Assembly: GCA_049582445.1 (NCBI GenBank)
Contig: JBAUTZ010000102.1
Span: 1-57,600, forward strand
Source: Burkholderiales bacterium
GTDB taxonomy: Bacteria; Pseudomonadota; Gammaproteobacteria; Burkholderiales; SG8-39
Reading direction: 5' to 3'
Length of the DNA: 57,600 bases
Below, one piece after another: positions 11,869-57,600 of this stretch; within the stretch, counting starts at the first letter, position 1; each line of letters opens with the position of its first letter. The notes under the pieces are model-generated. The model was not told where the DNA came from and did no database searches. It saw only the letters and a list, made by a program, of their open reading frames with translations. The position numbers were made by a program, and so were the translations under genes.

Positions 11869-11901
11869 GTCGCCGTGCTCAGGGCAGGCGGCGAACGCAA
11901 T

Positions 11902-11932: not shown

Positions 11933-11958
11933 TTTCCTAGGATGCATCGAGACGAGTT

Positions 11959-12228: not shown

Positions 12229-12292
12229 AATCTCTCCTCGAGCAAACCGGGATTTTACCCGAACGTTCCGCTCAAGAACAAGTTTTTTGATG

Positions 12293-13201: not shown

Positions 13202-13220
13202 CGGGCGACGCGCCGGATTC

Positions 13221-13583: not shown

Positions 13584-13592
13584 GCGCGACCG

Positions 13593-16148
13593 CTACAAAG
13601 TGCGGGCGACTTCGAGCACTTCGAATGCCTCGAATTGGTCACCCTCTTTCAGGTCATTGAAGTTCTTCAGTGAAATTCCGCACTCGAATCCCGCCTTGAC
13701 TTCGCGCACGTCGTCCTTGAAGCGCTTGAGCGAATCGATTTCCCCGGTGTGGATCACCACGTTCTCGCGCAGAACGCGCAGCTGCGCATTGCGCTTGACG
13801 ACGCCCTCGAGCACGTAGCAGCCCGCCACCGCGCCAACCTTGGAGATCCGGAACACCTGACGAACTTCGACCAGCCCGATGACCTGCTCCTTCTTCTCCG
13901 GGGCAAGCATCCCCGACAGGGCCGCCTTGATCTCTTCGACCGCCTCGTAAATGATGTTGTAGTAACGCACTTCCATACCTGCGCTCTCGATCAGCTTGCG
14001 CGCAGTCGCGTCGGCCCGCGTGTTGAACCCGATGATGATCGCGCGCGAGGCCATCGCGAGGTTGACATCGGATTCTGTGATTCCTCCGACGCCGGCGTGC
14101 ACCACGTTCACCCTGACCTCGTCGGTCGAAAGACGCGTAAGTGCATGCACCAGCGCTTCCTGCGAGCCCTGCACATCGGCCTTCAGGACGATGGACAGGG
14201 TCTTCTTTTCCCCCTCGCCCATCTGCTCGAACATGTTCTCCAGCTTCGCGGCCTGCTGCTTGGCGAGCTTGACGTCGCGGAACTTGCCTTGGCGGAACAA
14301 GGCGATCTCGCGCGCCTTGCGCTCGTCCGCGATGACGACGATCTCGGCCCCGGCCTGCGGCACGTCCGACAGGCCCTGGACTTCCACCGGGATCGAAGGG
14401 CCGGCCGACTGAACGGCCTTCCCGTTCTCGTCGAGCATGGCGCGCACGCGTCCGTAGACGGCGCCTGCGAGGACCACGTCACCGCGCCGCAGGGTTCCCG
14501 ATTGCACCAGCAGCGTCGCCACCGGACCGCGTCCCTTGTCGAGTCGGGCCTCGATGACGACCCCTTTGGCGAGGGTTTCCACCGGCGCCTTGAGCTCGAG
14601 CACCTCGGCTTGCAGCAGCACGCGCTCCAGCAAATCATCGATGCCTTGGCCGGTCTTCGCCGACACCTGGACAAATGGCGACTCTCCGCCGTACTCCTCG
14701 GGGACGACGCCGTGGCTCAGCAGCTCCTGCTTCACCCGCTCCGGATTGGCCTCCGGCTTGTCGATCTTGTTGATCGCCACCACCAGCGGGACGGCAGCCG
14801 CCTTCGAGTGATTGATGGCCTCGATCGTCTGCGGCATTACGCCGTCGTCTGCGGCCACTACGAGAATCACCAGGTCGGTGACTTTCGCGCCACGCGCACG
14901 CATCGCCGTGAACGCCTCGTGGCCCGGCGTATCGAGAAAAGTCACCACGCCGCGTGGAGTCTCCACGTGGTAGGCGCCAATATGCTGGGTAATGCCGCCC
15001 GCTTCTCCGGCGGCCACCTTGGTTCGCCGGATGTAGTCCAGCAACGAGGTCTTCCCGTGATCGACGTGGCCCATCACGGTGACGACCGGCGGGCGAGTGC
15101 GCGCCTCCGTGGCGTGCTCTTCTACCGACTCGACCAGGTAGGCCTCCGGATCGTCGAGCTTGGCCGGCCTACCCTTGTGTCCCATCTCCTCGATCACGAT
15201 CATCGCAGTGTCCTGGTCGAGCACCTGGTTGATCGTCGCCATCGTGCCGAGCTTCATGAGGGCCTTGATCACCTCTGCGGCTTTGACCGACATCTTGTGC
15301 GCCAGCTCGCCGACGGTGATCGTCTCGGGAACGGCCACTTCCCGCACGATCGGCTCCGAAGGCTGCGCAAAGCTCGCTTGCTCCGCCACTCCTGCGCCCG
15401 GGCGATGGCGTGCGCCGCCACGGACGTGCCAGCCGCCGACACCCCCACCCATGTCGCCGCGCGTCTTGATCATGCGCCTGCGCGCCGAATCGTCCCGCAG
15501 CACGGTCGTGGTCTTGACCTTCTTGGCTTTCTTCTCCGCCTTGCCCTCTTCGGGTTTGGCCTTCGGCGCATGCAACGTGCCCTCCGAGGGGGCCGGTGCG
15601 GCGCCTGGCGCTGCCGCCTTGGTTAGCGCCGCTTGGGCCTCGCGCTCCGCCTGCTTCTGATCGGCGTCGCGCTTCTCGCGTTCCTGCTTCTCCTTGAGCT
15701 CCTGCGCCTGGATCTCGGCCAGTTGCTGCTGACGGCGCGCTTCCGCCTCGCGCAGCTCGATCTCCCTGGCGTCGATCGTCGGGGCCAGGGGCGCCGCAGG
15801 CGCCCCTGGCGGCGCTTCCGCGGGGACCGCTTCCACCGCCCCTTCGTTCTGATCGCGCTTAACGAACACGCGCTTCTTGCGCACCTCCACCTGAATGGTG
15901 CGCGCCTTGCCCATCGAGTCGGATTTCTTGATCTCGCTGGTCTGCTTGCGGGTCAGCGTAATCTTGTTCTTCGCTTCCGCCGAGCCATGCGCCTTGCGAA
16001 GGTATTCCAGGAGCCTCGACTTGTCCTGCTCGGTGAGCGAGTCCTCGGCGACGCGCTTCTCCACTCCCGCAGCGCGGAGCTGCTCGAGCAGTACCGAGGG
16101 CGGGACCTTCAGCTCGCTGGCGAATTGTGCGACGCTGGTCTGTGCCAC
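13593..16148 (-). CDS. infB: Translation initiation factor IF-2
   Basis: 851 aa. GTPase motifs [20 protein letters not shown] and NKID, with a charged K/E/A-rich N-terminal region. GTG start 1 nt after the nusA stop. Confidence 0.98.
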
Positions 16149-42355: not shown

Positions 42356-42406
42356 TTGCTTTGGTGAGGATACTGGATATAATTTCACTGGTGTAAATAG
42401 AGACAG
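42356..42406 (+). promoter_or_regulatory. Putative lexA promoter (-35 TTGCTT, 16-nt spacer, -10 TATAAT) with two imperfect SOS-box-like sites
   Basis: TTGCTT 42356-42361; TATAAT 42378-42383. Site 1 is CTGGATATAATTTCAC at 42373-42388 (2 mismatches to CTGT-N8-ACAG, overlapping the -10). Site 2 is GTGTAAATAGAGACAG at 42391-42406 (1 mismatch), 12 nt before the ATG. Confidence 0.45.
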
Positions 42407-42418
42407 TGCGCCTACGGC

Positions 42419-43045
42419 ATGGACACGCTCACCGATCGCCAGACTGAAATCCTGCGCCTCATCCGCGAACTGACCGAGGCGTCGGGGTATCCGCCGACCC
42501 GCGCCGAGATCGCACGCTCGATGGGATTCCGCTCGGTCAATGCGGCCGAGCAACACTTGCGCGCGCTGGAAAGGAAGGGAGCGCTCGAAATTTCTTCGGG
42601 TGCCTCGCGCGGCATTCGGGTGCGCGATCGCGCGCCCCATCGGCTTGGTCGATTGATGGAACTGCCGGTCGTCGGTCGGGTCGCGGCCGGCAGCCCGATC
42701 CTTGCGGAGGAGCATGTCCAGGGACGCTACCAAGTCGACCCCAATCTCTTCACGCCGCGCGCCGACTACCTCCTGCGGGTGCGAGGCCTGTCCATGCGCG
42801 ATGCCGGCATCCTGGAAGGGGATCTGCTGGCGGTACACCGTACCCAGGAGGCGCGCAGCGGCCAGATCGTCGTTGCGCGGCTTGCAGACGAGGTGACAGT
42901 GAAGCGGCTGCGTCGGCGTGGGCACGCCGTGCAACTGCTTCCCGAGAATCCGGATTTCTCGCCGATCGATCTCGATCTGCGCCGTGATTCGCTCACAATC
43001 GAGGGTATCGCCGTGGGCGTGATCCGCAACAGCAAGAATTTGTAA
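42419..43045 (+). CDS. lexA: LexA repressor
   Basis: [57 protein letters not shown]. Ala-Gly cleavage site in [10 protein letters not shown], catalytic Ser in [10 protein letters not shown], and Lys in VTVKRL. Confidence 0.97.
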
Positions 43046-43138
43046 AGCGGGGCTCAGGGGAGACCGGGGCGTGCGAATGCCGCGGGCGGCGGTGCCCGCT
43101 ATCCCCCTATAATGGTGGTCACGTTCCGCGCCCAATAA

Positions 43139-44968
43139 ATGGACCACGCCAAGGACGCAGCCTTTCTGGACCTGACCTCCGCGGCAGACACGCCCGTGTC
43201 GGCGCCGCCGGTACGTGAGCTAGCCGATCAGCGAAAGGTCTTCGCGGACCAGGTCGACCTGCTGTTCCGACATTCTCCGATGGGCGTCCTGATCACGATC
43301 GTGGTCGGGGGCATCGCCACCTATGAGTTGTGGGGCGAGCACAACAACGACTTGGTGAGTCTATGGTGCGTGATGATGCTCTTCATCGGCGCCGCCCGTC
43401 ATATACTCTACCGAGCCTACTACCGTCGGCGCGACGCCGACTACGGCAATTGGCTGCGCTGGTTCGCGATCGGGGCATTCGCCTCCGGTGCTGTATGGGG
43501 ATTCGCAGGAACGGTTTTTTTCCCCGCGCACACCGATGCTCAGCAGGTATTTCTCGCGTTCCTGCTCGCCGGTATCGTCGCGGGAGGAATACCGATCTAC
43601 TCGGCGGTCTGGTGGGTCTACGCGCTCTACGGCGTCGCCATCATCGTGCCGTTCACGTACATTCTGGCAACCTATGGCAGCCGCCAGTTCATCGAGCTGG
43701 CGGTCCTGGTCCCACTGTTCCTCGCCGTCAATATCAGCATCGCCATGCGGCTTTCGAGGGTGTTCGCCGACGGTTTCCGGCTGCGCCACGCCTACGCGCA
43801 CCTGGGACAGGACCACTCGATGCTCAACGCGCAGCTCCAGGAGCAGATCGAGGAACTCCTGCAGGCGCAGCGCGAGGTCGAAGCGTCGGGAAGGAAGCTC
43901 GCACTGTTCGCCGAACGAGCGCCTATTGCGGTGTTCGAGGTCGATCGCAACGGCACGATTCTGGAAATGAACCCCTCGGCCGAGAATACCTTCGGCTATT
44001 CCAGCACCGAGATGATCGGCCGCAGCATGATCCGGATGCTCATTCCGTCCGATGAGCCGGTGCTTAGCAGCGATTGGTGGAAGAATTTCGTGGCGGATGC
44101 CCATCCCGAGGCAGGCCTCAAGGTCCGGTGCCGCCGCCGCGACGCCGTTGAGCTGATTTGCGAATTCTCGCTCACCCCCCTCGTCAACGACGTCGGCGAG
44201 CTGATCTCCGTCATCACGCAGTGCCAGGACATTACCCAGCAGCTCGAGGCCGAGCGGCTGAAGAAGGAGTTTACGTCGACCTTGTCCCACGAGCTGCGCA
44301 CGCCGCTGACCTCTATCATCGGGTCGCTGCAGCTGATCAATACGGGCATGCTCGGGGACCTGGACAAGGAGGTCTCCGAGCTGACCAATATAGCCGAGCG
44401 GAATGGCCAGCGGCTGCTCGACTTGATCAACGATCTGCTCGATATCGACAAGATCGAATCGGGCAAGCTCACGACCTATCCCGAGCCGCTCTCACTCGAC
44501 GAGCTCGTTCGGGAATCGCTGATTCTGAACCGTGCGTTTGCCGATCGTTTCGGGGTACGCATGGCCCTGCGGGGCGAACCGGTTCCGATGACCGTCAATG
44601 CCGATAAGAAGCGGTTGATCCAGGTGATGACGAACCTGATGTCCAACGCCTCCAAGTTCTCGCCCGAGGGGGGGCTCGTCGAGGTCGGGCTGGATCTTGT
44701 TGATAACAACATGGCGCGCGTCAGCGTGATGGACCGTGGAAGCGGGATCCCGCCCGAGTTCCGCAGCCGCATATTCGGACGCTTCGCGCAAGCAGATTCG
44801 GCTGCGACTCGCCAGAAGGGCGGCACGGGCCTCGGCCTGGCGATCTGCAAGCGGCTCATCGAGCTGATGGGCGGGCGCATCGGCTTCGCCGACCGCGATG
44901 GCGGCGGTACCACTTTTTTCTTCGAGCTGCCGCTGATGGATCAGCCGCCGGCAGCCACATCAACGTAG
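43139..44968 (+). CDS. Membrane-bound PAS-domain sensor histidine kinase, non-hybrid
   Basis: ~230-aa polytopic N-terminus, a coiled coil, and a PAS region (APIAVFEVDRNGTILEMNPSAENTFGYSSTEMIGRSM). H-box FTSTLSHELRTPLTSI, N-box MTNLMSNASKFSP, and G-boxes DRGSGIP and GGTGLGLAICK. There is no receiver or Hpt domain. Confidence 0.9.
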   Translation: MDHAKDAAFLDLTSAADTPVSAPPVRELADQRKVFADQVDLLFRHSPMGVLITIVVGGIATYELWGEHNNDLVSLWCVMMLFIGAARHILYRAYYRRRDADYGNWLRWFAIGAFASGAVWGFAGTVFFPAHTDAQQVFLAFLLAGIVAGGIPIYSAVWWVYALYGVAIIVPFTYILATYGSRQFIELAVLVPLFLAVNISIAMRLSRVFADGFRLRHAYAHLGQDHSMLNAQLQEQIEELLQAQREVEASGRKLALFAERAPIAVFEVDRNGTILEMNPSAENTFGYSSTEMIGRSMIRMLIPSDEPVLSSDWWKNFVADAHPEAGLKVRCRRRDAVELICEFSLTPLVNDVGELISVITQCQDITQQLEAERLKKEFTSTLSHELRTPLTSIIGSLQLINTGMLGDLDKEVSELTNIAERNGQRLLDLINDLLDIDKIESGKLTTYPEPLSLDELVRESLILNRAFADRFGVRMALRGEPVPMTVNADKKRLIQVMTNLMSNASKFSPEGGLVEVGLDLVDNNMARVSVMDRGSGIPPEFRSRIFGRFAQADSAATRQKGGTGLGLAICKRLIELMGGRIGFADRDGGGTTFFFELPLMDQPPAATST

Positions 44969-44980
44969 CGAGGTCTGCGC

Positions 44981-45370
44981 ATGCCAGCCACCCCACTGAA
45001 CCGAATCTGCTACGTCGAGGACGACGAGGACATCCAGCGTATCGTGCGCATGTCGCTGGAGCGCGTGGGCAAAATGACCGTCAGGGTTGTGGGCGACCCG
45101 GCCGATGCCATAGACGCGATAAAGGAATTCAAACCAGACCTTGTGATGCTGGACTGGATGATGCCTGGCATGGACGGGCCGACACTGTTTCGCAAGATGC
45201 GCGAGATGCCCGAGGTGCGGCACTTGCCGGTCGTCTTCATTACGGCGAAGGCCTCGTCGGCCGAAATGGACGAACTGCGCGCCATGGGCGCAGCCGGCGC
45301 GATTTCCAAGCCCTTTTCGCCTAAGGACTTGCCCGACCAGCTGCGCGGCATCTGGAGCGCCCTGCCCTGA
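44981..45370 (+). CDS. Single-domain (CheY-like) response regulator
   Basis: 129 aa. Acidic pocket YVEDDED, phospho-acceptor context LVMLDWMMPGMDG, then FITAK and ISKPF. GAGG lies 8 nt upstream of the ATG. Confidence 0.92.
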   Translation: MPATPLNRICYVEDDEDIQRIVRMSLERVGKMTVRVVGDPADAIDAIKEFKPDLVMLDWMMPGMDGPTLFRKMREMPEVRHLPVVFITAKASSAEMDELRAMGAAGAISKPFSPKDLPDQLRGIWSALP

Positions 45371-45388
45371 AGGGGCGAAATACGCGCC

Positions 45389-46618
45389 CTAGATCATGAC
45401 GTCCTTGACGCTGATGCCTGAACGCCCGTACTCGAGCGTGCGCCGGATTCGATAGATCTCGTCCGCACTGATCTTCGGTCCACGCGAAAGGTCGATCAGC
45501 TTCTGCGGCCGGATCGGATTCCCCTTGTCATCGCGCACCACCATGACGCGCGGCTGGAGACGCTTCGCGACGTTTTGCGAAATGACGATCCCTACCTCTC
45601 CGTTGTTCAGCTCGACCACGCTGCCGACGGGAAAGACTCCGATGCAGCGGATGAATTCTTCGACCAGAACGGGGTTGAAGGCCTTTCCGCGCCACTTGTG
45701 GAGCATCCCGAGCGCGTTCGACGGTGTCATCGGCTCGGCATATGGACGCTTGGCGGTCATCGCGCAATACGTGTCCACAATGCCGGCACAGCCGCCGATG
45801 GTGCCGAGCGCTTCCTTGCTCAGACCCTGCGGATAGCCCGTCCCGTCGAAACGTTCATGATGCATTGCCGCAATGTCTGCGATGTCGGCTGACATTCCCG
45901 GAGTGCCGTGCAAGATCTCTACCCCCCGCGTGACGTGATTCCGGACGAGCTTTTGTTCATCCGGATCCAACGGACCGGTCTTTCCGACGACGTCCTCGGG
46001 CAACTCCAACATCCCGATGTCCTGCAACAGCCCAACCATTCCCGCACGCTCGATGTCGTCCTCGGTCATGCCCAGGAATCTGGCGAACATGATCATGTAG
46101 ATCGACCCTTGCATCGCCCGATCGAGAAAGTATCCGCCTCGCTCCCTTAGCGCGGAGAACAGCACGAGCGCATCGGGGTTCCGCATCACGCTCGCGGTCA
46201 TTTCGGTCACGGCCGCTCTGATCGCCATGCCGTCGAGTTCGGCATCCTTTCCCAAGGAGGATGCGACGGACTCCCATGTGGTCTTTGCGGCCGAGTACGC
46301 GGTCTCCGCGCGGTTAAGCTCCAACTCAACCGACACACGCGTTACGTGCTCCACGCGCCGAATGCCGCGCGGCAACGTGCCGCGCGACACCGCGGACTGC
46401 TGCCCCACGAGCGGTTCTCGCCTGATCACGTTCGGCTCGTCGCTGCGCTCCACGTCGATATAAACTTCCTTGCAGAACTTGCGCAGGGTTTCGAGCTGCT
46501 CGGGTTCGCTCAGCAGGAATCCCTGGAATAGGAAGGGCGTCTCGGTCCAGGGACGGTCGAGCTGGGTGACGTACATCCCGAACTTGAGCTCGCCGACGCT
46601 TATTTTCTTGCTGATCAC
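45389..46618 (-). CDS. DUF3391-type N-terminus plus HD-GYP domain protein with degenerate metal-binding motifs
   Basis: GTG start. MISKKISVGELKFGMYVTQLDRPW, RNHVTRGVEIL and HHERFDGTGYPQGL are present, but the canonical LLHDIGK reads LLQDIGM and DxxDA reads DTYCA. Confidence 0.85.
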   Translation of the reverse strand: MISKKISVGELKFGMYVTQLDRPWTETPFLFQGFLLSEPEQLETLRKFCKEVYIDVERSDEPNVIRREPLVGQQSAVSRGTLPRGIRRVEHVTRVSVELELNRAETAYSAAKTTWESVASSLGKDAELDGMAIRAAVTEMTASVMRNPDALVLFSALRERGGYFLDRAMQGSIYMIMFARFLGMTEDDIERAGMVGLLQDIGMLELPEDVVGKTGPLDPDEQKLVRNHVTRGVEILHGTPGMSADIADIAAMHHERFDGTGYPQGLSKEALGTIGGCAGIVDTYCAMTAKRPYAEPMTPSNALGMLHKWRGKAFNPVLVEEFIRCIGVFPVGSVVELNNGEVGIVISQNVAKRLQPRVMVVRDDKGNPIRPQKLIDLSRGPKISADEIYRIRRTLEYGRSGISVKDVMI

Positions 46619-46654
46619 GGTTTTACTTGCCTCTAGACCGCCTCACTCCCGGGC

Positions 46655-47920
46655 TCAGGCAGCCCTCGCCACGGAGGCTTCGCCGCCAGCGGGCTCCTGA
46701 TAGTACTTACGCGCAAGGAATCCGATCACCTCGTCCGCATTGCGAAAGCGGGCATCGCGATCCTTCTCGACCAGTTTGTCGACCAGACGCTGGTAGGCGA
46801 CCAGCGCCTCCGGTAGTGCCGGCGGCGGTTTGTTCAGGTGTTGCAATGCGACCTCGATTGCCGTCGGCGCATCGAACAGATGCTTTCCGCTCAGCATCTG
46901 GTAGAGGAGAACACCGGCGCTGTAGATGTCCGTTCTGAGGTCGAGCGCCATTCCACGCACCTGCTCGGGACTCATGTAGCGTGGCGTGCCAAGGACCTCG
47001 CCGTGGCTGGTACGGTCCACGGAGTCGATGTGCTTGGCGATGCCGAAGTCCACGATCGCCAGGCTTCCGTCGGAGCGGAACATCAGGTTCTGCGGTTTCA
47101 GGTCCCGGTGCAAGACCCCGCACTCGTGGATGTCGCCCAGCGCGAACATCAGCTCGCGAAATATGCGCAGCGCCTCGGACGGCGGTGCCGCCTTACCGCC
47201 AAGGCGCTTGTTGAGATCGCCTCCGTCGAAAAATTCCATGACCAGGTAGGCGTGCCCTTCCGATACGCCGTGGCCGTGAATCTTCGCGACGTGCCGGCTT
47301 CGAATTCGTTCGGCGAGGCTGTATTCTTCCATGAAGCGGTCGAGCGCGAGCTTGTCATCCGTCACCTCGGTGCGCAGAATCTTCACCACCAGCGGCTCGT
47401 CGTCCTTTTCCCGCGAAGCGAGATATACGCGGGACATGCCCCCCTCGCCGATCAGCCGCAGAACGCGAATCCCCGGAATCCTGATGCGCGCACCGAGGAG
47501 ATGCCCTTCCAGCCGCGCCGCAAGCTCGGGCGAAAGCGTGCGTTCGTCCTCTACGTGCGTGAGATCGCGGAGCGACGTTACCAGTCGCTCGCGCGTGAGC
47601 TCCTGTTTGCGCTGATAGTCGTCCGCGCCAGCCTTCATCGCGCGCACGGCGATGATTTCGTTTCCTGCGCCCGTCAGGAACAGAATTGGGGGGCAGTCCT
47701 TGCGCTGCTTGAACGCTTGCAGCCACTCGAGGCCGTCGCCGCGACCGAGCATATAGTCAAGGATGATGACGTCGTAATGTCCCAGCGGAAAATCATTGCC
47801 GGGCATGTCCCGCGTCAGAGGATCAAACTGCTCGACGTCTGCACTGGGCCATTGCTGTCGAATGTAATGCGCGAGAAGGCTCCGCAGATCCTCGTCGTCG
47901 TCGATGATCAGCGCGCGCAT
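46655..47920 (-). CDS. Receiver domain fused to a Hanks-type Ser/Thr protein kinase
   Basis: The ATG at 47920 gives MRALIIDDDEDLRSLL...DVIILDYMLGRGDG...FLTGAG (REC). The kinase part has GEGGMSRVYLA, VVKIL, HRDLKPQNLMF, DFGIAK and GTPRYMSPEQ. Confidence 0.9.
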   Translation of the reverse strand: MRALIIDDDEDLRSLLAHYIRQQWPSADVEQFDPLTRDMPGNDFPLGHYDVIILDYMLGRGDGLEWLQAFKQRKDCPPILFLTGAGNEIIAVRAMKAGADDYQRKQELTRERLVTSLRDLTHVEDERTLSPELAARLEGHLLGARIRIPGIRVLRLIGEGGMSRVYLASREKDDEPLVVKILRTEVTDDKLALDRFMEEYSLAERIRSRHVAKIHGHGVSEGHAYLVMEFFDGGDLNKRLGGKAAPPSEALRIFRELMFALGDIHECGVLHRDLKPQNLMFRSDGSLAIVDFGIAKHIDSVDRTSHGEVLGTPRYMSPEQVRGMALDLRTDIYSAGVLLYQMLSGKHLFDAPTAIEVALQHLNKPPPALPEALVAYQRLVDKLVEKDRDARFRNADEVIGFLARKYYQEPAGGEASVARAA

Positions 47921-47927
47921 CTGTATA

Positions 47928-49058
47928 TCAGACCCGCACGGCGTATACCGGCACGGACTCGGCCTTGCCTCGCAAGGTGATGTCACCGCGGGGCGCCATC
48001 GTGCCGGCCGGCAGCAGGTCGCGAACCGCCTCATATACACGTCCGCAAACCAGAATCTCGTTGGCGTTCGCGGCCTGCATCAGGCGCGCGGCCGTGGCGA
48101 CGGGGTCGCCGATCACCGTGTAGTTCATGTAGTGCGGGGATCCGACGTTCGCGATGATCGCTTCGCCCATGCAGATGCCAACGCCGACTCCCGTCCGCAC
48201 ACCGAGGCGCCGTTCCCACCTTGCGGACACCGGCGCAAAGCGGCTCACCATATCCTGCGCCGCCCGCAGCGCACGAGTCGCCGCGTCGCTCTGCAGGAAC
48301 GGCACGTTGAAGCCGATCAGCAGGCTGTCGCCCGACATGCTGAAGACCGTGCCGTCGTGCTGATACGCCGCATCGGTGAGGATCGAGAAATACTCGTTAA
48401 GCATCTCTACCACCTCGCCCACCTCGCCCCCTTCCGTGAGGCTGGAAAGTCCTCTCAGGTCGGCGAATACCGCTACAACGTTAATCCTCTGCGCGTTCCC
48501 TTTGAACGGGCCACCCTCTATGCCGATGTCCTGGATGATGCGGTCGGCCAGCCGCGGCGAGATGTAGCGCGAGAAGGCCTTCCGGATCGCCTCCTTGCGT
48601 TGAATTTCCGCCGACTGGCGCCTCGTCTCCAGCTCGCGTCGGGTCTCGTGCAGACGGCGCAGCGTGTTGACGCGCGCCAGAAGTTCCGACGGATTGACGG
48701 GTTTCGACAGAAAATCATCGGCCCCTGCCTCGATACCCTTTACGCGACTGTCTTTATCCTCGAGCGCCGTGATCAATACGATCGGCATCAGGGCCGTGTC
48801 GTGCCGGGACTTCAGCTTCTTGCATATGTCGAATCCGCTCGGGCCGGGCATCATGACGTCGAGCAGCACAAGGTCCGGGCGCTCCGCGGCAACGCGTTCC
48901 AGCGCCGCGTCGCCGTCGCCGGCCGTGTCGACGACGATGCCTTGCTTGCGCAGGAGGTGCGCAAGAAATCCAGTCATGTCCGGATCATCGTCGACGACGA
49001 GCACCCTGAACGCGGCTTCGGTTCGCGGCGAGAGATTTACGGAGGCGACCTCAGCCAT
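47928..49058 (-). CDS. Receiver domain, coiled-coil linker and class III nucleotidyl cyclase domain (non-canonical active-site positions)
   Basis: The ATG at 49058 gives MAEVASVNLSPRTEAAFRVLVVDDDPD...LVLLDVMMPGPSG...ITAL...SKP (REC). Linker FSRYISPRLADRI. Cyclase motifs are VAVFADLRGLSSL, GTVFSMSGDSLLIGF and YTVIGDPVATAARL. Confidence 0.88.
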   Translation of the reverse strand: MAEVASVNLSPRTEAAFRVLVVDDDPDMTGFLAHLLRKQGIVVDTAGDGDAALERVAAERPDLVLLDVMMPGPSGFDICKKLKSRHDTALMPIVLITALEDKDSRVKGIEAGADDFLSKPVNPSELLARVNTLRRLHETRRELETRRQSAEIQRKEAIRKAFSRYISPRLADRIIQDIGIEGGPFKGNAQRINVVAVFADLRGLSSLTEGGEVGEVVEMLNEYFSILTDAAYQHDGTVFSMSGDSLLIGFNVPFLQSDAATRALRAAQDMVSRFAPVSARWERRLGVRTGVGVGICMGEAIIANVGSPHYMNYTVIGDPVATAARLMQAANANEILVCGRVYEAVRDLLPAGTMAPRGDITLRGKAESVPVYAVRV

Positions 49059-49356
49059 ATACGATGCTGACGCGCCCCAGGAATTCGTCGTACTCGGCAA
49101 TGCAGGTTTCGAGCGCGGCCCGGTCACCGCTGCGCGCCCCGTCCTCGATCCGCTTCCCCAGCACCGATACCTTCTCGAAGCCATACGAATTTCCGACACC
49201 CTTCATGCGATGACCCAGCTGCCGAAGCTGTTCCAGGTCAAGGGCCGCAAGCGCCGAACGCAGGGTCTCGAGTTCCTTCTTGCGGTTGCTCATGAACATC
49301 GGAATGAGGTCTTCGAGGTCCTTGGGAACGGTAACGATATATGCGCTCTCGGTCAT
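49051..49356 (-). CDS. Stand-alone histidine phosphotransfer (Hpt) protein
   Basis: 101 aa. The LRQLGHRMKGVGNSYGF motif is the HxxKG phospho-histidine signature. The stop overlaps the cyclase start by 8 nt (ATGGCTGA). Confidence 0.85.
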   Translation of the reverse strand: MTESAYIVTVPKDLEDLIPMFMSNRKKELETLRSALAALDLEQLRQLGHRMKGVGNSYGFEKVSVLGKRIEDGARSGDRAALETCIAEYDEFLGRVSIVYG

Positions 49357-49522
49357 GGCTGCTTCTGTTCCCCTCTAGGTGGTGGCCAGGCGCACGAATT
49401 GCCTGCGTTGCCCGTCCACGACGCCATGATTTTATAGGCAATTAACGCCACGCCCGACCCCTGGATCGTCAATCCTGTACCGGGGATTGTTAATTCGTGT
49501 CCAAGTGCCCGCCGTGCGCTCA

Positions 49523-50047
49523 TCATGGTCTGGCGCCGCCGACGACTTCGCGTGCACGCGCCAGATGCGGATGCAAGGAGAGGGCACAGGAAAACGCATA
49601 TCTGGCCGCCTCCTCTTGATGGTCACCCAGAAGGATCTCGCCGAAGCTGCACAGCGCTCCGAAATGACGTGGCTCGAGTTCCAGCGTCCGGCGAAGATCG
49701 AGGACGCAAGGTTCATCGTATTCCAGCAGGTAATACAGCGTCGCCCGCTTGTGCCAGGCCTCGGCGAAGTCCGGCGCGCATCGCAGCAGGCGGTGCAGAC
49801 GGGTCTCCGCGATGTCGTAGCGGCGCGCCGCAATATCACGGGTTGCAAGCTCGAGCGCTTCGGCCGCGGACCGATGAGGGTGGTACATCCATAGGTCCCA
49901 TATGCGATCCTCGGTCACGCTGGCCTCGTCCTGCCTCGAGCAGTGCGCGAGACGGCGAAACAGTACATCGAGCGCGGGGAAAGGACGTGCTGGCCGCCGC
50001 ATCCGCCGTGCAGCGATCAAGCAGAGTGTGTCCGTGTATCCGGGCAT
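49523..50047 (-). CDS. Small TPR-like repeat protein, function unknown; start uncertain
   Basis: PDFAEAWHKRATLYYLLEYDEPCVLDLRRTLELEPRHFGALCSFGEILLGDHQEEAARYAFSCALSLHP reads as TPR-type helical hairpins. It begins 24 nt after the dnaE2 stop on the same strand. Confidence 0.6.
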   Translation of the reverse strand: MPGYTDTLCLIAARRMRRPARPFPALDVLFRRLAHCSRQDEASVTEDRIWDLWMYHPHRSAAEALELATRDIAARRYDIAETRLHRLLRCAPDFAEAWHKRATLYYLLEYDEPCVLDLRRTLELEPRHFGALCSFGEILLGDHQEEAARYAFSCALSLHPHLARAREVVGGARP

Positions 50048-50071: not shown

Positions 50072-53000
50072 TCAGCGGAAGTTACGAGAGGTCACGGTAA
50101 GACGTCCCAGCAGGGAATCATGGTTGGAAAGCCGACGGGCGACCAGGTGCACCACTTCCCCATCGCGCTCGATGACCCCCTCCACACCCAGCAGGCGCGC
50201 GCCGAGCAGTTCGCGACGCTGGCGCTCGGCGCATTTCCGCCAGACGACCACGTTGACGCAGCCGGTTTCATCTTCGAGCGTGACAAATATCACACCGCTC
50301 GCGGTGTCGGGGCGTTGCCGACAAGTGACGAGCCCCGCCGTGCGAGCAACGCGCCCATGGGGCAGAGCCCGCAACCTCTCCGCCGTGAGGAGCCTGAGAC
50401 AGGAAAGTCGGTCGCGCAGCAGCGCAAGCGGATGGCGCCCCAGCGTCAGGCCGAGGCTTGCATAGTCCGCAACGATGTCCTCGCCCTCCTTTGGGGGCAC
50501 GAGATCGGCCGGCGTTTCGCGCACCGGCATTGTGCGCAACATGCCGGGCGCATGCTCCACGCCCGCTGCAAGCCAATGGGCCTGCCGGCGATGTCCCGCG
50601 AGAGACGAGAGCGCACCGGCCGCGGCGAGATGACCGAGTTCGCTCCGATCGAGTTTGGCGCGATGAGCGATATCATCGACGGAATCGAACGGCCGCGCCG
50701 CCATAATCCTCTTTGCCGCCGCCTCGGAAATGCCGTTCACCATTCGCATCCCGAGGCGCAGCGCCCGCCCTTCCAGCGTGCAGTCCCAGTCGCTCGTTGC
50801 GACGTCGACAGACCTCACCTCGACACCGTGGCGCTGCGCGTCCTGGACCAGCTGCGCGGGTGCGTAGAAGCCCATCGGCTGGCTGTTCAGCAGCGCCGCG
50901 CAGAACGCTGCTGGCGCGTGGCATTTGAGCCAGGCCGATACATAGACGAGCAACGCAAAACTTGCAGAATGCGATTCCGGAAAACCGTACTCCCCGAATC
51001 CAAGGATCTGTTTGTAGACCACCTCTGCGAAATCCCGGGCATAGCCACGCTCGAGCATGCCCCGCACCAGCCGCTCTTCAAACCGCTCGAGCTCACCTTT
51101 CCTGCGCCAAGCCGCCATCGAGCGACGCAGCTGGTCCGCCTCACCCGCGGAGAATCCGGCCGCGACCATCGCCAGCTGCATCACCTGCTCCTGGAAGATC
51201 GGCACGCCGAGAGTGCGCTCGAGGACTCGCTTTACCTCCTCGCTCGGGTATGTGACCGGCTCGAGGCCCTGACGACGACTCAGGTAAGGGTGCACCATGC
51301 CGCCCTGGATTGGTCCCGGACGCACGATCGCAACTTCGATCACCAGATCGTAGAAATTGCATGGTCTCAGGCGCGGCAACATGCTCATCTGGGCGCGTGA
51401 TTCGATCTGGAAAACACCGACCGTATCGCCGTGCTGGATCATTTCGTAGACCGCCGGATCGTCCACAGGCACGTCCTGCATCCTCAGACCCAAGAATTCC
51501 AGAGCACGGCGAATGGCCGACAGCATGCCGAGCGCCAGCACGTCTACTTTGATCAGTCCGAGGGCATCAATGTCGTCCTTGTCCCACTGGATCACCGTAC
51601 GGTCCTGCATCGCGGCATTTTCGATGGGCACCAGCTCGGCCAGCGGCCCGCGTGAAATGACGAAACCACCGACGTGCTGCGATAGATGGCGCGGAAACCC
51701 GACCAGCGTGGAAGTAAGCTCGAGCAGCTGCTGCACCACCCGACTTTCCGGGTCTAGCCCTGCATCGCGCACCCGCTCCGGCAGCCGGCTAGGGTCATCC
51801 CACCATGCGAGGCTGCGCGATAGACGCTCGATCTGATCGGGGGTGAGGCCCAGCGCCTTGCCTACGTCGCGCACCGCGCTGCGTGGTCGATAGCAAATCA
51901 CGGTCGCCGCGAGCGCGGCACGCTCGCGGCCGTACTTCGAGTAGATGTACTGAATCACCTCTTCGCGCCGCTGGTGCTCGAAATCGACGTCGATGTCCGG
52001 CGGTTCGTTGCGTTCCCTGGAGACGAAGCGCTCGAACAGCGTGCTCATTCTGCCGGGGTCCACCTCGGTAATGCCGAGCGCGTAACACACCGCGGAGTTG
52101 GCCGCCGAACCGCGTCCCTGGCACAGGATCCCCCTGCTTCTCGCGAACCTGACCACATCGTGCACGGTCAGGAAGAACGCCTCGTAGCGCAACTCGGCGA
52201 TCAGCTCCAGCTCGTGCTCGACGAGCTCACGCACCCTGTCGGGAACCCCGCCCGGAAAGCGCCAGCCAAGGCCCTCCTGCGTGAGCCGGCGCAACCAGCT
52301 CGCGGGGGTTTCACCCGCCGGAGCCAGCTCCGTCGGATATTCGTAACGCAGCTCGTCGAGCGAGAAGCTGCAACGCTCGGCAATTGCCAGCGTCTCGGCA
52401 AGCAGACCGGGCGAATAAAGCTGCGCCAGGCGCATGCGCAACCGCAGGCTGCGTTCCGCGTTCGGATATAACGCATGGCCGCACTGCGCCACCGGCTTGC
52501 CAAGACGGATCGCGGTGATCGTGTCCTGCAGCCGTCTGCGTGAGCGCACGTGCATGTGCACGTCGCCTGCGGCGACGAGCGGCAGCCCGGACGCTGCGGC
52601 CAGCTCGCCCAGTAGCTCGAGCCGTGCCCGGTCGTTGGCCCCGCAATGCAGTTCGGCGGCAACCCAGGCACGCGCTGGGAAGAATCCCGCAAGCCAGCAT
52701 GCGTTGTCGAGTACCGGCTGCTCGCCCGGCACGAGCAATGCGAGCACACCACCCCCCGCAAGCGGCTCGATATCGCGGCGCGCCAGCACATAACCACCCT
52801 TCCCCGCCCGCCTGCGTCCGAGGGTGACAAGCGTACATAGCGCGCCATACGCGCGCCGGTCGGTGGCGAGCAAGACGAGCCTTGTACCGTCGTCGAGCCC
52901 CACCTCGGTTCCCACGATCAACTTCAGCCCGGAAGCTTTCGCGGCGAGATGCGCACGCACTACCCCCGCAACCGAACATTCGTCGGTCAACGCCAGCGCA

Positions 53001-53116
53001 GAGTAGCCGAGCGCCGCGGCCCGTTCTACCAGTTCCTCCGGATGCGACGCGCCGCGCAGGAACGTGAAGTTCGACAGGCAATGGAGTTCCGCGTACGCGG
53101 GCAGGACGGAAGGCAT
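50072..53116 (-). CDS. dnaE2: Error-prone DNA polymerase (Pol III alpha paralogue)
   Basis: MPSVLPAYAELHCLSNFTFLRGASHPEELVERAAALGYSALALTDECSVAG (PHP domain). 1014 aa, last gene of the imuA-imuB-dnaE2 order. Confidence 0.96.
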   Translation of the reverse strand: MPSVLPAYAELHCLSNFTFLRGASHPEELVERAAALGYSALALTDECSVAGVVRAHLAAKASGLKLIVGTEVGLDDGTRLVLLATDRRAYGALCTLVTLGRRRAGKGGYVLARRDIEPLAGGGVLALLVPGEQPVLDNACWLAGFFPARAWVAAELHCGANDRARLELLGELAAASGLPLVAAGDVHMHVRSRRRLQDTITAIRLGKPVAQCGHALYPNAERSLRLRMRLAQLYSPGLLAETLAIAERCSFSLDELRYEYPTELAPAGETPASWLRRLTQEGLGWRFPGGVPDRVRELVEHELELIAELRYEAFFLTVHDVVRFARSRGILCQGRGSAANSAVCYALGITEVDPGRMSTLFERFVSRERNEPPDIDVDFEHQRREEVIQYIYSKYGRERAALAATVICYRPRSAVRDVGKALGLTPDQIERLSRSLAWWDDPSRLPERVRDAGLDPESRVVQQLLELTSTLVGFPRHLSQHVGGFVISRGPLAELVPIENAAMQDRTVIQWDKDDIDALGLIKVDVLALGMLSAIRRALEFLGLRMQDVPVDDPAVYEMIQHGDTVGVFQIESRAQMSMLPRLRPCNFYDLVIEVAIVRPGPIQGGMVHPYLSRRQGLEPVTYPSEEVKRVLERTLGVPIFQEQVMQLAMVAAGFSAGEADQLRRSMAAWRRKGELERFEERLVRGMLERGYARDFAEVVYKQILGFGEYGFPESHSASFALLVYVSAWLKCHAPAAFCAALLNSQPMGFYAPAQLVQDAQRHGVEVRSVDVATSDWDCTLEGRALRLGMRMVNGISEAAAKRIMAARPFDSVDDIAHRAKLDRSELGHLAAAGALSSLAGHRRQAHWLAAGVEHAPGMLRTMPVRETPADLVPPKEGEDIVADYASLGLTLGRHPLALLRDRLSCLRLLTAERLRALPHGRVARTAGLVTCRQRPDTASGVIFVTLEDETGCVNVVVWRKCAERQRRELLGARLLGVEGVIERDGEVVHLVARRLSNHDSLLGRLTVTSRNFR

Positions 53117-53120: not shown

Positions 53121-54557
53121 CTACGCGAACAGCCCGTGCAGGTACCAGCTGCCGCTTCGCTCGCGATATATCCAGAGCAGCGCGCTGCTCGATGTCCTCG
53201 CGATGAAGTAATCGCGCGCGATCTCTCCTCCGTCCCACCAGCCGGATTCGATGCGCTCGGGGCCGGACAGCAATTCGAGCCGGCCGCCGTCGTGAGGCAC
53301 GCCGCCCGACTCCTTGAGCCGGCGCGGCGGCTCGATCAGCCAGAGGGGTCGCGCGCCAGTGCGCGTTTCTCCGCCTGGTGGCTGCGCGTCGGCGCCGAGC
53401 GCCCGCCAAGCACGCTCCGGACGGTGCTCCGCCTGCAGGCCGATCCCGTGCACGGCATCCCCGCCCAGGCGCGCCCGCAGGCGCTCGAGCAGCCGTGCCC
53501 AATCCTCTCTTTCGGTACGCGCGCCGCGAAACAACTCCGCCGTATAGCCATGCAGCGGTTCGAAATCGGCGGCTTCGATACGGATTGCCTCGACTGGCTC
53601 GATCAGCACGACGGTCGAAAGCTTCTCCCGGAGCAACCTAAGCAAACGGTCGATATCGCGGCTGGGGGAGACAAGCCCGACTTCGACGACCGACGCAGGA
53701 GCCGCCCGATGCAGCAGCGTCAGAACAAACCGCCGCACGCCCGCCTGGCGGGCCGTGAGCAAACCCTCGAGCTGCACTAGAAGTCGCCGCGCAGCGAACA
53801 GCACTCCTTCCGCATGCTCCACCTCACCGTGCAACTCGAGCTTCGCGGCAAAGCGCGCCGGCGGGACGAACAACGTGCGCGGCTCCGGTGCTCTTCCCGA
53901 CGCGCGTTCCCAGCCTTCGAGCAGCGCCCGGCCCAAGCGCCGCCCTACGCCCTCTCGTGGCAGAGCGAGCAATTCCCCCATGGTCGTGACACCGATGCCG
54001 CGCAGGAGATCGAGTGCATCCCGGCCGGGGCAGGCCACCGAGACAGGCAACGCGGCAAGCGCCGTCTCGAGGAGTGCCGCGTCAGTGATCAGCTGCTCGC
54101 TCCCTGCGCTCGCAAGCCACCACGCACCGCGCACGGTCGGCGCTGCGGCGAGCATCGCCCTGAAACCCATTTCTTCAAGGCTGCTGCGTATCCGACCGAT
54201 CAACGGCGCAAGGCCATGAAACAGGCGCAGGCTGCCCTCGATCTCCATAAGCACGCCCTGCGGCGGCTCGAGCGACACGTAAGGCGTGAAGCGGCATGCC
54301 CAGGCCGCGATACCCTCGAGCGCTTCGTGTTCGGCTGCCTGCTCACGCGGCCGTACGCGCAGTCGCGGCGCGAACGCCCAGGCTGCGGCAAGCCCCATGC
54401 CGGAGCGCACGCCCAGCGCTTCCGCCTGCGCATTGCAAGCGAGCACCTCGCGACCGTCGGCGATCACCCACGGAACGCCCGCTAACTCATGCGGGGCACG
54501 GTCGCGCGACAGGGCTTCGAGCGCGAGCGAAGGAAAGCGCAGGGCCACCCACAGCAT
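53121..54557 (-). CDS. imuB: ImuB, Y-family polymerase-like accessory protein
   Basis: MLWVALRFPSLALEALSRD...PWVIADGREVLACNAQAEALGVRSGM. 478 aa, between imuA and dnaE2. Confidence 0.93.
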   Translation of the reverse strand: MLWVALRFPSLALEALSRDRAPHELAGVPWVIADGREVLACNAQAEALGVRSGMGLAAAWAFAPRLRVRPREQAAEHEALEGIAAWACRFTPYVSLEPPQGVLMEIEGSLRLFHGLAPLIGRIRSSLEEMGFRAMLAAAPTVRGAWWLASAGSEQLITDAALLETALAALPVSVACPGRDALDLLRGIGVTTMGELLALPREGVGRRLGRALLEGWERASGRAPEPRTLFVPPARFAAKLELHGEVEHAEGVLFAARRLLVQLEGLLTARQAGVRRFVLTLLHRAAPASVVEVGLVSPSRDIDRLLRLLREKLSTVVLIEPVEAIRIEAADFEPLHGYTAELFRGARTEREDWARLLERLRARLGGDAVHGIGLQAEHRPERAWRALGADAQPPGGETRTGARPLWLIEPPRRLKESGGVPHDGGRLELLSGPERIESGWWDGGEIARDYFIARTSSSALLWIYRERSGSWYLHGLFA

Positions 54558-55182
54558 GAACAGGCCTTTTGAGCGGAAGAAACACGGGCGCTGCAGCCAG
54601 CGCGCCGCGGCGCTTGAGGAGGCGCACCGTGATCCCTCCGTGTACAGGCTCGAGCGCGATACGCAGGCAGGCTGGCGACGGTTCGGGCGCTACTTCTGGA
54701 CGACGGAATAGGGCGCAAAAGACACGACTCGTCTCCGCCGCAACCGCAAGCCGCCGCAGTTCGGGATAGCGAATGTCGCGGAACCAGGCGATGAGCGCAT
54801 CGCAGCTGCCTGCACGCAGCACCTGCTCGGCGGCCCAAAGCGCATCGCGCCGTCCTGGGGCGCGCACCACCGATAGCTGAGCAAGGTCGATACCCGCGGC
54901 GGCGAGTGCCGGTGCATAGGGCAAATGCGGCGGGGCAAGCCACACGATACGCCGCCCTCTCCTGGAGAGCTTCACGAGCGCCGGCAGCACGAGCTGCAGC
55001 TCGCCGACGCCCTCATGCAAGCCGAGAATCTCGGTCAGTGCCCCGCTGGGCCAGCCCCCGCCGGGCAGCTCGCGATCCAGAGCGGCGAACCCGGTCGGCA
55101 CCGCCGGCGCCGGCAGGGGCGCAAGAGCGCCGCCGCGCCAGACGGAATGTCGCGCAAGGATATCGGCGAGCAATGTCTTCAT
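54487..55182 (-). CDS. imuA: ImuA, SulA/RecA-fold translesion synthesis accessory protein
   Basis: The ATG at 55182 gives MKTLLADILARHSVWRGG...TGFAALDRELPGGGWPSGALTEIL. First gene behind a perfect SOS box. Its 3' end overlaps imuB by 71 nt. Confidence 0.9.
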   Translation of the reverse strand: MKTLLADILARHSVWRGGALAPLPAPAVPTGFAALDRELPGGGWPSGALTEILGLHEGVGELQLVLPALVKLSRRGRRIVWLAPPHLPYAPALAAAGIDLAQLSVVRAPGRRDALWAAEQVLRAGSCDALIAWFRDIRYPELRRLAVAAETSRVFCALFRRPEVAPEPSPACLRIALEPVHGGITVRLLKRRGALAAAPVFLPLKRPVHAVGGPALSFARARSPVARPCPA

Positions 55183-55184
55183 AG

Positions 55185-55222
55185 CCACCCGTATACTGTA
55201 TTTATATACAGTATACGGGTGG
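55185..55222. repeat. 38-nt inverted repeat (17-nt perfect arms, 4-nt centre) enclosing the SOS box
   Basis: CCACCCGTATACTGTAT-TTAT-ATACAGTATACGGGTGG. The arms were checked by hand as exact reverse complements. Confidence 0.95.
55196..55211. promoter_or_regulatory. LexA operator (SOS box) CTGTATTTATATACAG
   Basis: Exact CTGT-N8-ACAG with an AT-rich core and flanking TA (TACTGTATTTATATACAGTA), 14 nt upstream of the imuA ATG. Confidence 0.9.
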
Positions 55223-57137: not shown

Positions 57138-57250
57138 GCCTGGCGGTAACCTACTTTCGCGTACGAATGCACACTATCATCGGCGCAAACCCGTTTCACT
57201 GTCCTGTTCGGGATGGGAAGGAGTGGGTCCAGGCTGCTATGGCCGCCAGA
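57138..57250 (-). rRNA. rrf: 5S ribosomal RNA (ends +/- 3 nt)
   Basis: Reverse complement TCTGGCGGCCATAGCAGCCTGGACCCACTCCTTCCCATCCCGAACAGGACAGTGAAACGGGTTTGCGCCGATGATAGTGTGCATTCG...GTAGGTTACCGCCAGG aligns with E. coli 5S landmarks (CCGAAC, GTGAAAC, GCGCCGATGGTAGTGTG). Confidence 0.95.
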
Positions 57251-57365: not shown

Positions 57366-57600
57366 TAGGGTCAAGCCACACGGGCAATTAGTACGGGTTA
57401 GCTCAGAGCCTCACAGCCCTTGCACACCCCGCCTATCAACGTCCTGGTCTAGGACGACCCTTTAGGGAGTTCGAGCCTCCGGGAAGTCTCATCTTGAGGC
57501 GAGTTTCCCGCTTAGATGCTTTCAGCGGTTATCTCTTCCGCACATAGCTACCCGGCAATGCCACTGGCGTGACAACCGGTACACCAGAGGTGCGTCCACT
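57366..57600 (-). rRNA. rrl: 23S ribosomal RNA, 3'-terminal ~235 nt; gene continues past the right edge
   Basis: Reverse complement ...GGAAGAGATAACCGCTGAAAGCATCTAAGCGGGAAAC...GACGTTGATAGGCGGGGTGTGCAAG...GAGCTAACCCGTACTAATTGCCCGTGTGGCTTGACCCT matches the conserved 3' end of bacterial 23S (E. coli ...GCTGAAAGCATCTAAG...GTTGATAGGCCGGGTGTGTAAG...GCTAACCGGTACTAATGAACCGTGAGGCTTAACCTT). Confidence 0.95.

Follow-up and report, generated by a model that had tools for sequence, protein, structure and literature searches.

A candidate split phosphorelay with a receiver-linked Hanks-type kinase encoded beside lexA and imuA-imuB-dnaE2 in a Burkholderiales bacterium

Organisation of the locus

Six adjacent signalling genes were examined in a 57,600-nucleotide (nt) stretch of DNA from a Burkholderiales bacterium (hereafter the window; assembly GCA_049582445.1, contig JBAUTZ010000102.1, positions 1 to 57,600 of the forward strand). 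Two of these genes lie on the plus strand and encode a non-hybrid histidine kinase (HK) with a PAS domain (43139-44968, 609 amino acids (aa), identified from its open reading frame (ORF) and Pfam) and a stand-alone receiver, here called the single REC (44981-45370, 129 aa, Pfam Response_reg 89 bits). The other four face them on the minus strand and encode, in the direction of transcription, a stand-alone histidine phosphotransfer (Hpt) protein (49051-49356, 101 aa, Pfam Hpt 37.9 bits), a fusion of a receiver and a domain homologous to class III nucleotidyl cyclases (REC-cyclase; 47928-49058, 376 aa, from its Pfam domains), a receiver joined to a Hanks-type Ser/Thr kinase (REC-kinase; 46655-47920, 421 aa, Pfam Pkinase 157 bits and Response_reg 62 bits), and a protein with DUF3391 and a degenerate HD-GYP domain (45389-46618, 409 aa, Pfam HD_5 and DUF3391). 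The domain calls were made with Pfam, all well over the gathering score, and NCBIfam was scanned additionally; because its matches to the signalling proteins were at the level of domains only and sub-threshold, no curated family claims these proteins.

The genes are closely packed. Those for Hpt and REC-cyclase overlap by 8 nt (ATGGCTGA), with gaps of 7 nt from the cyclase to the kinase gene, 36 nt from the kinase to the HD-GYP gene and 12 nt from the HK to the single REC gene, and the stop codons of the convergent single REC and HD-GYP genes are 18 nt apart. Hpt is translationally coupled to the next gene of the operon, whichever gene that is. The ORF of the REC-kinase extends upstream of an ATG at 47920, and we took this ATG as the start codon because the resulting length of 421 aa matches that of a 99%-identical homologue (P0001); the other closest homologues are of the same length. 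A preliminary description of this DNA, made from its letters alone, had given the six genes with the same domains and coordinates and the same three minus-strand junctions, and these hold exactly. It had also proposed that the locus holds the full parts list of a His-Asp-His-Asp relay split into separate polypeptides, and all the parts are indeed present, namely HK, REC, Hpt and output receivers.

Conservation of the cluster across species

A scan of one genome per GTDB species identified 219 genomes with a relative, of which the best 80 were examined. All 80 are uncultured metagenome-assembled genomes (MAGs), titled overwhelmingly as Burkholderiales or Betaproteobacteria. Twelve proteins of the region in the window were placed in the loci of these relatives by tblastn, and statements on gene order among the 80 species-level loci hold only where the contig extends far enough. 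In each sufficiently flanked locus the genes for Hpt, REC-cyclase and REC-kinase were found on one strand, facing those for the single REC, the HK and LexA, and the same order was also seen in several metagenome contigs. The query for co-occurrence that the preliminary description had asked for thus returned the facing gene sets as syntenic in 80 species. Likewise, lexA adjoins the HK gene in every sufficiently flanked locus, and no sufficiently flanked species carries one half of the system without the other. The arrangement is not due to chance, and the genes form a real unit.

Not all members are equally persistent. Five species lack the REC-cyclase gene and have the kinase gene directly after that of Hpt, at a distance of 3-21 nt; a sixth species retains only a C-terminal remnant of the cyclase. 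The HD-GYP gene, which had been described as part of the operon, does not belong to its core, being present in only ~30 of the 80 loci and degenerate in each. A TPR gene is found in ~29 of the 80 loci, and imuA-imuB-dnaE2 is absent upstream of hpt in ~15 fully flanked loci. Because the cyclase and HD-GYP genes vary in this way, the invariant core consists of the HK, the single REC, Hpt and the REC-kinase. Median identity to the window protein was 79% for the REC-kinase, 76% for the single REC, 66% for Hpt, 64.5% for the REC-cyclase, 58% for the HK and 55% for the HD-GYP protein, with medians of 84% for LexA, 79% for NAPRTase, 74% for DnaE2 and 54.5% for ImuB as a comparison. By these values the REC-kinase and the single REC are about as constrained as their housekeeping neighbours. 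The REC-kinase is represented by more than 120 homologue clusters at 77-99% identity, nearly all of them metagenomic.

Two observations concern individual records. In locus L003 an insertion sequence with a DDE_Tnp_1 transposase (12625-14331) has inserted between the HD-GYP and single REC genes, and further transposase genes lie upstream of imuA. In addition, several MAGs with this betaproteobacterial locus at 76-88% identity have titles that name Sphingomonadaceae, Enterobacteriaceae, Bordetella or Clostridia (L010, L035, L054, L064, L086 and others), which likely reflects mis-binning or mislabelling of public records.

Conserved residues of the kinases, receivers and Hpt

Residue conservation was read from alignments of 67-78 sequences per family, each including the window protein. 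The HK has six transmembrane helices predicted from hydropathy (approximately residues 41-202), followed by PAS (254-368), HisKA (375-442, 68 bits) and HATPase_c (489-599, 103 bits) domains in Pfam, and it contains neither a REC nor an Hpt domain. No Pfam family matched its membrane domain, even at E = 10. The phosphorylatable H384, N503 of the N box, and the DxGxG (G1) and GxGLG (G2) motifs were invariant in 67 sequences (66 species and the window). Hpt has its phosphorylatable histidine, H49, in the sequence GHRMKG, which provides the HxxKG context, and this residue was invariant in 75 sequences (74 species and the window). The solved chains closest to the window Hpt are the ArcB Hpt domain and a 116-aa Hpt (7c1i), labelled in the PDB only as 'Histidine kinase', which we take to be HptB of Pseudomonas aeruginosa.

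All three receivers have intact acidic pockets. In the single REC the relevant residues are D14/D15, D58, T88 and K110, of which D14, D58, T88 and K110 were invariant in 78 sequences (77 species and the window) and D15 is an aspartate in 76 of the 78. The receiver of the REC-cyclase has D23-D25, D67, T97, F116 and K119, and that of the REC-kinase D7-D9, D55, T83, Y102 and K105, with the acceptor residues invariant in both. The three differ at the β5 switch position, which is an invariant Phe (F116) in the REC-cyclase and an invariant Tyr (Y102) in the REC-kinase, and non-aromatic and variable in the single REC (Thr in 33, Ala in 23 and Ile in 13 sequences). An aromatic versus a non-aromatic residue at this position has been tied to terminal versus intermediary receivers, respectively (PMC9981736). 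The FATGUY motif of shuttle receivers (PMC9981736) is absent from the single REC of the window, which reads FITAKA, and its non-aromatic β5 residue, being the weaker criterion for a shuttle role, is supporting evidence only.

The kinase domain has every Hanks-type motif, including the Asp of subdomain IX and the Arg of subdomain XI. Its K180, E199, HRDLKPQN (271-278), DFG (291-293), T304, T312 and SPE, together with GEGGMSRV, D331 and R391, were invariant in 77 sequences (76 species and the window). The claim that the receiver pockets and the kinase motifs are intact was therefore borne out, these residues being invariant or nearly so in the 67-78 sequences of each family. By comparison with the PDB, PknA and PknB are the nearest matches to the kinase fold. 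An AF2 model of the REC-kinase was obtained with a pLDDT of 75 and a pTM of 0.74, and a fold search of the PDB with this model matched the kinase domain only, leaving the gating by the receiver uninformed. No solved structure of a receiver joined to a Hanks kinase was found, by sequence or by fold search.

Substitutions in the cyclase and HD-GYP domains

By sequence, the cyclase domain is closest to 2w01, the chimeric bacteriophytochrome-cyclase 6fht, CyaB (3r5g) and photoactivated cyclases. Mapped on CyaB (3r5g) and 2w01, the window cyclase retains the metal-binding D200 and D244, as well as T314 and R325, and has replacements at S240 and A321. The first of these is the substrate-specifying position, where CyaB has Lys and 2w01 has Glu. 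Among 70 sequences this column holds Asn in 42, Ser in 27 and Gly in one, never Lys or Glu, and a distant relative at 46% identity also has Asn there. The second substrate position is an invariant Thr (T314), so that neither of the usual substrate-specifying pairs (Lys with Asp/Thr, or Glu with Cys/Ser/Gly) is present in the window. The second replacement, A321, falls on the transition-state Asn, so the catalytic pair of Asn and Arg is incomplete.

The loss at position 321 belongs to a wider pattern in the sub-clade of the window. All 63 species outside this sub-clade keep the D-D-N-R set. Within it, all seven members (the window and L007-L012) have at least one catalytic substitution, drawn from D200E, D244E, N321D, N321V, N321A and R325Q, and the receiver Asp is kept in all seven; the substitution in the window is N321A, and member L011 keeps both the Asn and the Arg. 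These substitutions, taken with the gene losses described above, argue that cyclase activity is dispensable and decaying in the sub-clade, with the receiver retained. As judged from sequence, the sub-clade cyclase looks like an enzyme turning into a pseudo-enzyme, while in most members of the family the domain looks catalytically competent, with an unusual Asn/Ser-Thr substrate-specifying pair, and there is a slight chance that such intact cyclases produce some nucleotide besides cAMP and cGMP. Given the sub-clade substitutions, with N321A here, a cyclic-nucleotide output in this genome is doubtful, and the window cyclase most likely survives as a second phospho-acceptor or as a scaffold rather than as a nucleotide cyclase.

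The HD-GYP protein shows a different kind of degeneration. Aligned to the solved 4mcw, it has QD in place of HD and an Arg in place of the first metal-binding His, but keeps the HHE and GYP motifs and the Asp ligands, with the sequence HHERFDGTGYP. All 30 aligned members are degenerate in the column of the HD histidine (Gln in 22, Leu in seven and Ala in one), while the HHE motif and the first two residues of GYP do not vary among these 30 sequences, 29 of which have the P. The complete set of metal ligands expected of an HD-GYP phosphodiesterase acting on c-di-GMP or cGAMP is thus lacking, and the QD-GYP protein is an optional accessory that is probably non-catalytic. Both nucleotide-handling domains accordingly deviate at key residues, as the preliminary description had pointed out (S240 and A321 in the cyclase, QD and Arg in the HD-GYP domain). 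Its account of the outputs, protein Ser/Thr phosphorylation and a cyclic nucleotide, remains likely in its first part, the motifs of the receiver-fused Hanks kinase being intact, but is doubtful in its second for this genome.

Distant relatives and gene fusions

An exhaustive search of 50%-identity representatives was used to identify distant REC-kinases. Those of ~410 aa are numerous at 38-48% identity, and the close clade falls within a single cluster. A REC-kinase that is 46% identical to that of the window (P0130) is encoded in a cluster comprising a non-hybrid HK with GAF and PAS domains, REC, REC-cyclase, REC-kinase, Hpt and REC, which has the same parts in a different order and carries neither lexA nor imu genes. 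Furthermore, two REC-kinases are fused to Hpt (P0129 and P0137), with genes for a PAS-HK and a single REC coming after that of P0137, and P0128 is a fusion of REC-cyclase and REC-kinase, the N-terminal half of which is 46% identical to the window REC-cyclase over 325 residues. On the short contig of P0128 (L093) only an ORF with a GAF domain was found downstream. Other distant REC-kinases are solitary or lie in a che-like cluster. Synteny, the rearranged distant cluster and these fusions tie together Hpt, REC-cyclase, REC-kinase, HK and the single REC. From the distant contexts it follows that the REC-kinase is a broader type of output, with the set of Hpt, REC-cyclase, HK and REC as a recurrent module. 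The HKs of the window clade and of the related clusters are never hybrid, and a free receiver would therefore be needed to load Hpt.

The distant loci also hold genes of other kinds. On two groundwater metagenome contigs (L088 and L089) a REC-Hanks kinase that is 44% identical to that of the window stands at the end of the che-like cluster, with CheW, CheR, CheD and two CheB, suggesting that, in the wider family, some REC-kinases serve chemosensory pathways as outputs. In L087, a gene for a Crp-family regulator (474-1151), which binds cyclic nucleotide monophosphates (cNMPs), lies near the distant rearranged cluster, and genes for YaiO, a HEAT-repeat protein and a family-2 glycosyltransferase follow that cluster (9967-13140). 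For that lineage, these genes hint at a receptor for cNMPs and at exopolysaccharide as a target.

Promoter elements and the SOS neighbourhood

A -10-like box, CCTATAAT, lies at 43106-43113 on the plus strand, 26 nt before the HK start codon, and a second, CCTATAAA, at 49431-49438 on the minus strand, 75-82 nt upstream of the hpt start codon. The motif CCTATAAW has two matches in the 57.6-kb window, one before each of the two signalling operons, and two or more matches were obtained in 0 of 100 shuffles. Among the relatives, 65 of the 67 loci that hold both lexA and the HK gene have a TATAAT-like box between the two, and one precedes hpt in 73 of 74 loci, with or without the imu cassette upstream. 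Because these boxes are conserved at both operons, the signalling genes have a promoter type of their own, which is apparently shared. The hpt box lies ~80 nt upstream in the sub-clade of the window. In about half of the relatives (for example L026, L030, L033, L038, L046 and L048) it starts 9-16 nt before the inferred start codon, which suggests that the hpt mRNAs are leaderless or nearly leaderless there. The hpt leader gave no match in Rfam, to a riboswitch or to any other RNA. Farther upstream there is also a TGAC(A/G) element, which stands 30-33 nt from the hpt box in 52 of 73 loci and at exactly 30 nt in 30 of them; it is too far from the box to be a sigma-70 -35 element and may be an activator site near -45.

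The neighbouring genes belong to the SOS response. lexA (42419-43045, plus strand; TIGR00498, 238 bits) is preceded by a near-consensus SOS box with one mismatch, GTGTAAATAGAGACAG, at 42391-42406 on the same strand, 12 nt upstream of the gene, and the HK gene begins 93 nt 3' of lexA on this strand. Upstream of the hpt operon, and on its strand, are the ORFs of imuA (54487-55188), imuB (53121-54557) and dnaE2 (50072-53116). At their head stands a perfect LexA box, CTGTATTTATATACAG, at 55196-55211 on the minus strand, 7 nt upstream of imuA; it is the single instance of a perfect CTGT-N8-ACAG in the window. An accessory neighbour, a small TPR protein of 174 aa with weak TPR and DUF6584 matches, is encoded between dnaE2 and hpt (49523-50047, minus strand), 24 nt 3' of dnaE2. 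The same LexA box precedes imuA in nearly all relatives, and perfect boxes precede lexA in many, so the SOS neighbourhood to which the preliminary description had drawn attention is real and is conserved within one clade.

The gaps between the SOS and signalling genes are short, ~7-137 nt from lexA to the HK gene in most loci and 49-102 nt from dnaE2 to hpt in nearly all loci without a TPR gene, and both sets, lexA-HK-REC and imuA-imuB-dnaE2-(TPR)-hpt onward, are co-directional, so read-through from the SOS promoters is conceivable. No LexA box with up to one mismatch was found in the interval from lexA to the HK gene of the window, nor, in species without the imu cassette, within 250 nt before hpt. 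The latter result weakens the case for SOS control of the hpt operon under selection. A functional tie of the relay to the SOS response is unproven.

Elsewhere, the window closes within a minus-strand rRNA operon, of which it includes the 3' end (23S 3' end, 57367-57600; 5S rRNA, 57138-57250), and three tRNA genes are clustered at 8762-9068.

Comparison with known systems

No characterised counterpart of the cluster was found in the literature or among close homologues, in agreement with the preliminary description, which knew of no characterised system of this composition. All of the at least 120 close REC-kinase homologues listed are metagenomic or from MAGs and are named at most 'protein kinase' or 'response regulator'. 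Our literature searches likewise returned no relay that ends in a REC-Hanks kinase, and the reviews found cover only crosstalk from Ser/Thr kinases to response regulators, in which mainly the kinases phosphorylate the regulators (PMC12471899).

Closest in logic is the sporulation relay of Bacillus subtilis. There, KinA-E, Spo0F, Spo0B and Spo0A form a four-step pathway of separate polypeptides that begins with a non-hybrid kinase, as here, with Spo0B as a dimeric DHp-like phosphotransferase and the DNA-binding regulator Spo0A as the output. By contrast, the cluster has an Hpt of the monomeric four-helix bundle type and enzymes as outputs (the Hanks kinase, with or without the cyclase), and it is branched. 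Close in output is the HptB-HsbR-HsbA-HsbD pathway of P. aeruginosa, in which a stand-alone Hpt acts on a receiver that controls a Ser kinase/phosphatase, with a link to a second messenger. In that pathway hybrid kinases load HptB, HsbR combines PP2C with an RsbW-type (GHKL) kinase, the target is a STAS anti-anti-sigma factor, and the second messenger is c-di-GMP from a GGDEF enzyme. The two systems share a stand-alone Hpt, a receiver-controlled protein kinase and a linked nucleotide enzyme; however, the kinase of the window is Hanks-type and its HK non-hybrid, and no PP2C, HATPase-type Ser kinase or STAS domain was found in the cluster genes or in the related loci.

Eukaryotic relays offer a third comparison. 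Yeast Sln1-Ypd1-Ssk1 leads to the MAPKKK Ssk2, on which the receiver protein acts in trans, and Dictyostelium DhkA/RdeA/RegA controls cAMP and PKA through the phosphodiesterase RegA. As in these, the route here would be mediated by Hpt and would end at Hanks-type kinase signalling and/or a cyclic nucleotide, but they start from hybrid kinases, whereas the window system is bacterial and has its receiver fused directly to the kinase. Receivers that regulate class III cyclases are represented by cyanobacterial CyaC and Stigmatella CyaB, with which the REC-cyclase shares its architecture. Its solved relatives are CyaB of P. aeruginosa (3r5g) and 2w01, and it has a Thr at the second substrate position, as in CyaB. 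The family has Asn or Ser throughout in place of the substrate-specifying Lys, and the transition-state Asn is Ala in the window. For the degenerate HD-GYP protein the nearest parallel is PA2572 of P. aeruginosa, a YN-GYP protein; the fold and GYP are kept and metal ligands are missing in both, so that a regulatory rather than a catalytic role would be expected, although in the window protein the N-terminal domain is DUF3391 rather than a receiver, and it has lost the first His as well as that of the HD dyad. The cluster belongs to neither the Bacillus, the HptB-HsbR nor the eukaryotic class of relay. Its domains and the relay principle are familiar, while its composition and the output through a receiver-gated Hanks kinase are uncharacterised.

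Discussion

Domain content, intact phospho-sites, conserved linkage and gene fusions are the observations from which a model of the cluster can start. The reading that we consider probable, if only modestly so, is that the genes encode one split, multi-step His-Asp network of separate polypeptides, with the receiver-gated Hanks-type Ser/Thr kinase as its invariant output. The HK, with its six transmembrane helices and PAS domain, would sense a membrane or cytoplasmic cue and autophosphorylate on H384, and would pass the phosphoryl group to D58 of the adjacent single REC. This receiver would then shuttle the group to H49 of Hpt, from which it would reach D55 of the REC-kinase and D67 of the REC-cyclase. 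Once phosphorylated, each output receiver would activate its fused enzyme domain through the conserved Thr and the Tyr/Phe switch, probably by dimerisation, followed in the kinase by phosphorylation of the activation loop at T304. An order of HK, single REC, Hpt and output receivers is plausible. The direction of phosphotransfer, the mechanism of activation, the signal and the substrates are what we infer.

Several points weigh against it. Because only genomic linkage and fusions speak to it, the order of transfer is likewise one that we infer. Synteny is also weak evidence on its own within the one uncultured clade that supplies all the close homologues, because the flanking housekeeping genes, NAPRTase and MFS, are syntenic there too. 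In addition, none of the genes nearby encodes a kinase substrate, a phosphatase or an FHA partner. The domain order of the REC-kinase-Hpt fusions resembles the REC-Hpt tail of hybrid kinases, and the fusions are equally compatible with a route from the HK through the receiver of the kinase to Hpt and on to a terminal receiver. Furthermore, one of the two fusion genes (that of P0129) adjoins a gene for an OmpR-type regulator, and both single RECs of the distant cluster in L087 carry Tyr at β5.

These last observations are what an alternative wiring would draw on, in which the HK phosphorylates the enzyme-linked receivers, these pass the group through Hpt, and the single REC would serve as a terminal, CheY-like output or take up phosphate as a sink; in a variant, the HK feeds all three receivers and Hpt redistributes or drains the phosphoryl groups. 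The fusions, with REC preceding Hpt, make this credible, the OmpR-type regulator could be a terminal acceptor, and the aromatic switch kept by the distant single RECs is typical of output receivers. In the clade of the window, however, it is the single REC that lacks the aromatic switch and the enzyme-linked receivers that keep it invariantly. The coupling of the single REC gene to the HK gene, across a gap of 12 nt, is moreover usual for a cognate pair, and the enzyme domains are the sole evident outputs in the cluster. On this evidence we regard the alternative wiring as somewhat unlikely.

We hold it to be distinctly unlikely that the locus houses two separate systems side by side, an ordinary two-component pair of HK and single REC downstream of lexA on the one hand and, on the other, an Hpt branch that hybrid kinases from other loci would load, as they do HptB of P. 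aeruginosa. In favour of this reading, each of the two convergent gene sets has a promoter-like box of its own, and synteny in the clade extends over the entire region, housekeeping neighbours included. Moreover, the solved chain closest to the window Hpt by sequence is 7c1i, which we take to be HptB, a protein fed by several hybrid kinases. Against this, a non-hybrid HK and a single REC accompany Hpt and the REC-kinase in both distant loci with readable flanks, and these loci differ in gene order and have no lexA. In addition, CCTATAAW boxes occur in the 57.6 kb only at these two operons, once at each, and neither half occurs without the other in a sufficiently flanked species.

It is very unlikely, in our view, that the relay is functionally wired into the SOS response as two convergent units, each headed by a LexA box, with DNA damage raising the dose of the phosphorelay. 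If it were, the Hanks kinase would phosphorylate SOS, mutagenesis or cell-cycle proteins, such as LexA, RecA or ImuA/B-DnaE2, and induced mutagenesis would come under environmental control. We dropped as most implausible the reading of the locus as an anti-phage defence island with a PD-T4-6-like protein kinase and a Pycsar-like cyclase, since the PADLOC matches in its favour (PD-T4-6 to the kinase domain, E = 2e-71, and PycC to the cyclase domain, E = 2e-16) are generic ones, expected for any Hanks kinase or class III cyclase, and since the cluster has no gene for a cNMP-activated effector, has a complete His-Asp sensory input, and is fixed in chromosomal position in 80 species with a kinase median identity of 79%, while defence islands are usually patchy and fast-evolving.

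The module is confined to uncultured soil bacteria, Burkholderiales or Betaproteobacteria by the titles of their MAGs, and one of its advertised outputs, the cyclic nucleotide, is probably defunct in the genome of the window. The natural series of intact, decaying and lost cyclases could show what role a REC-cyclase plays once catalysis is gone. The family as a whole is a clean and conserved test case, with a kinase of 79% median identity across 80 species and natural fusions of the kinase to Hpt and to the cyclase. If the split network that we favour is correct, a His-Asp signal would directly gate O-phosphorylation, the reverse of the known crosstalk in which kinases act on response regulators, and the cluster would be a bacterial parallel to the logic by which eukaryotic phosphorelays lead to MAPK signalling.

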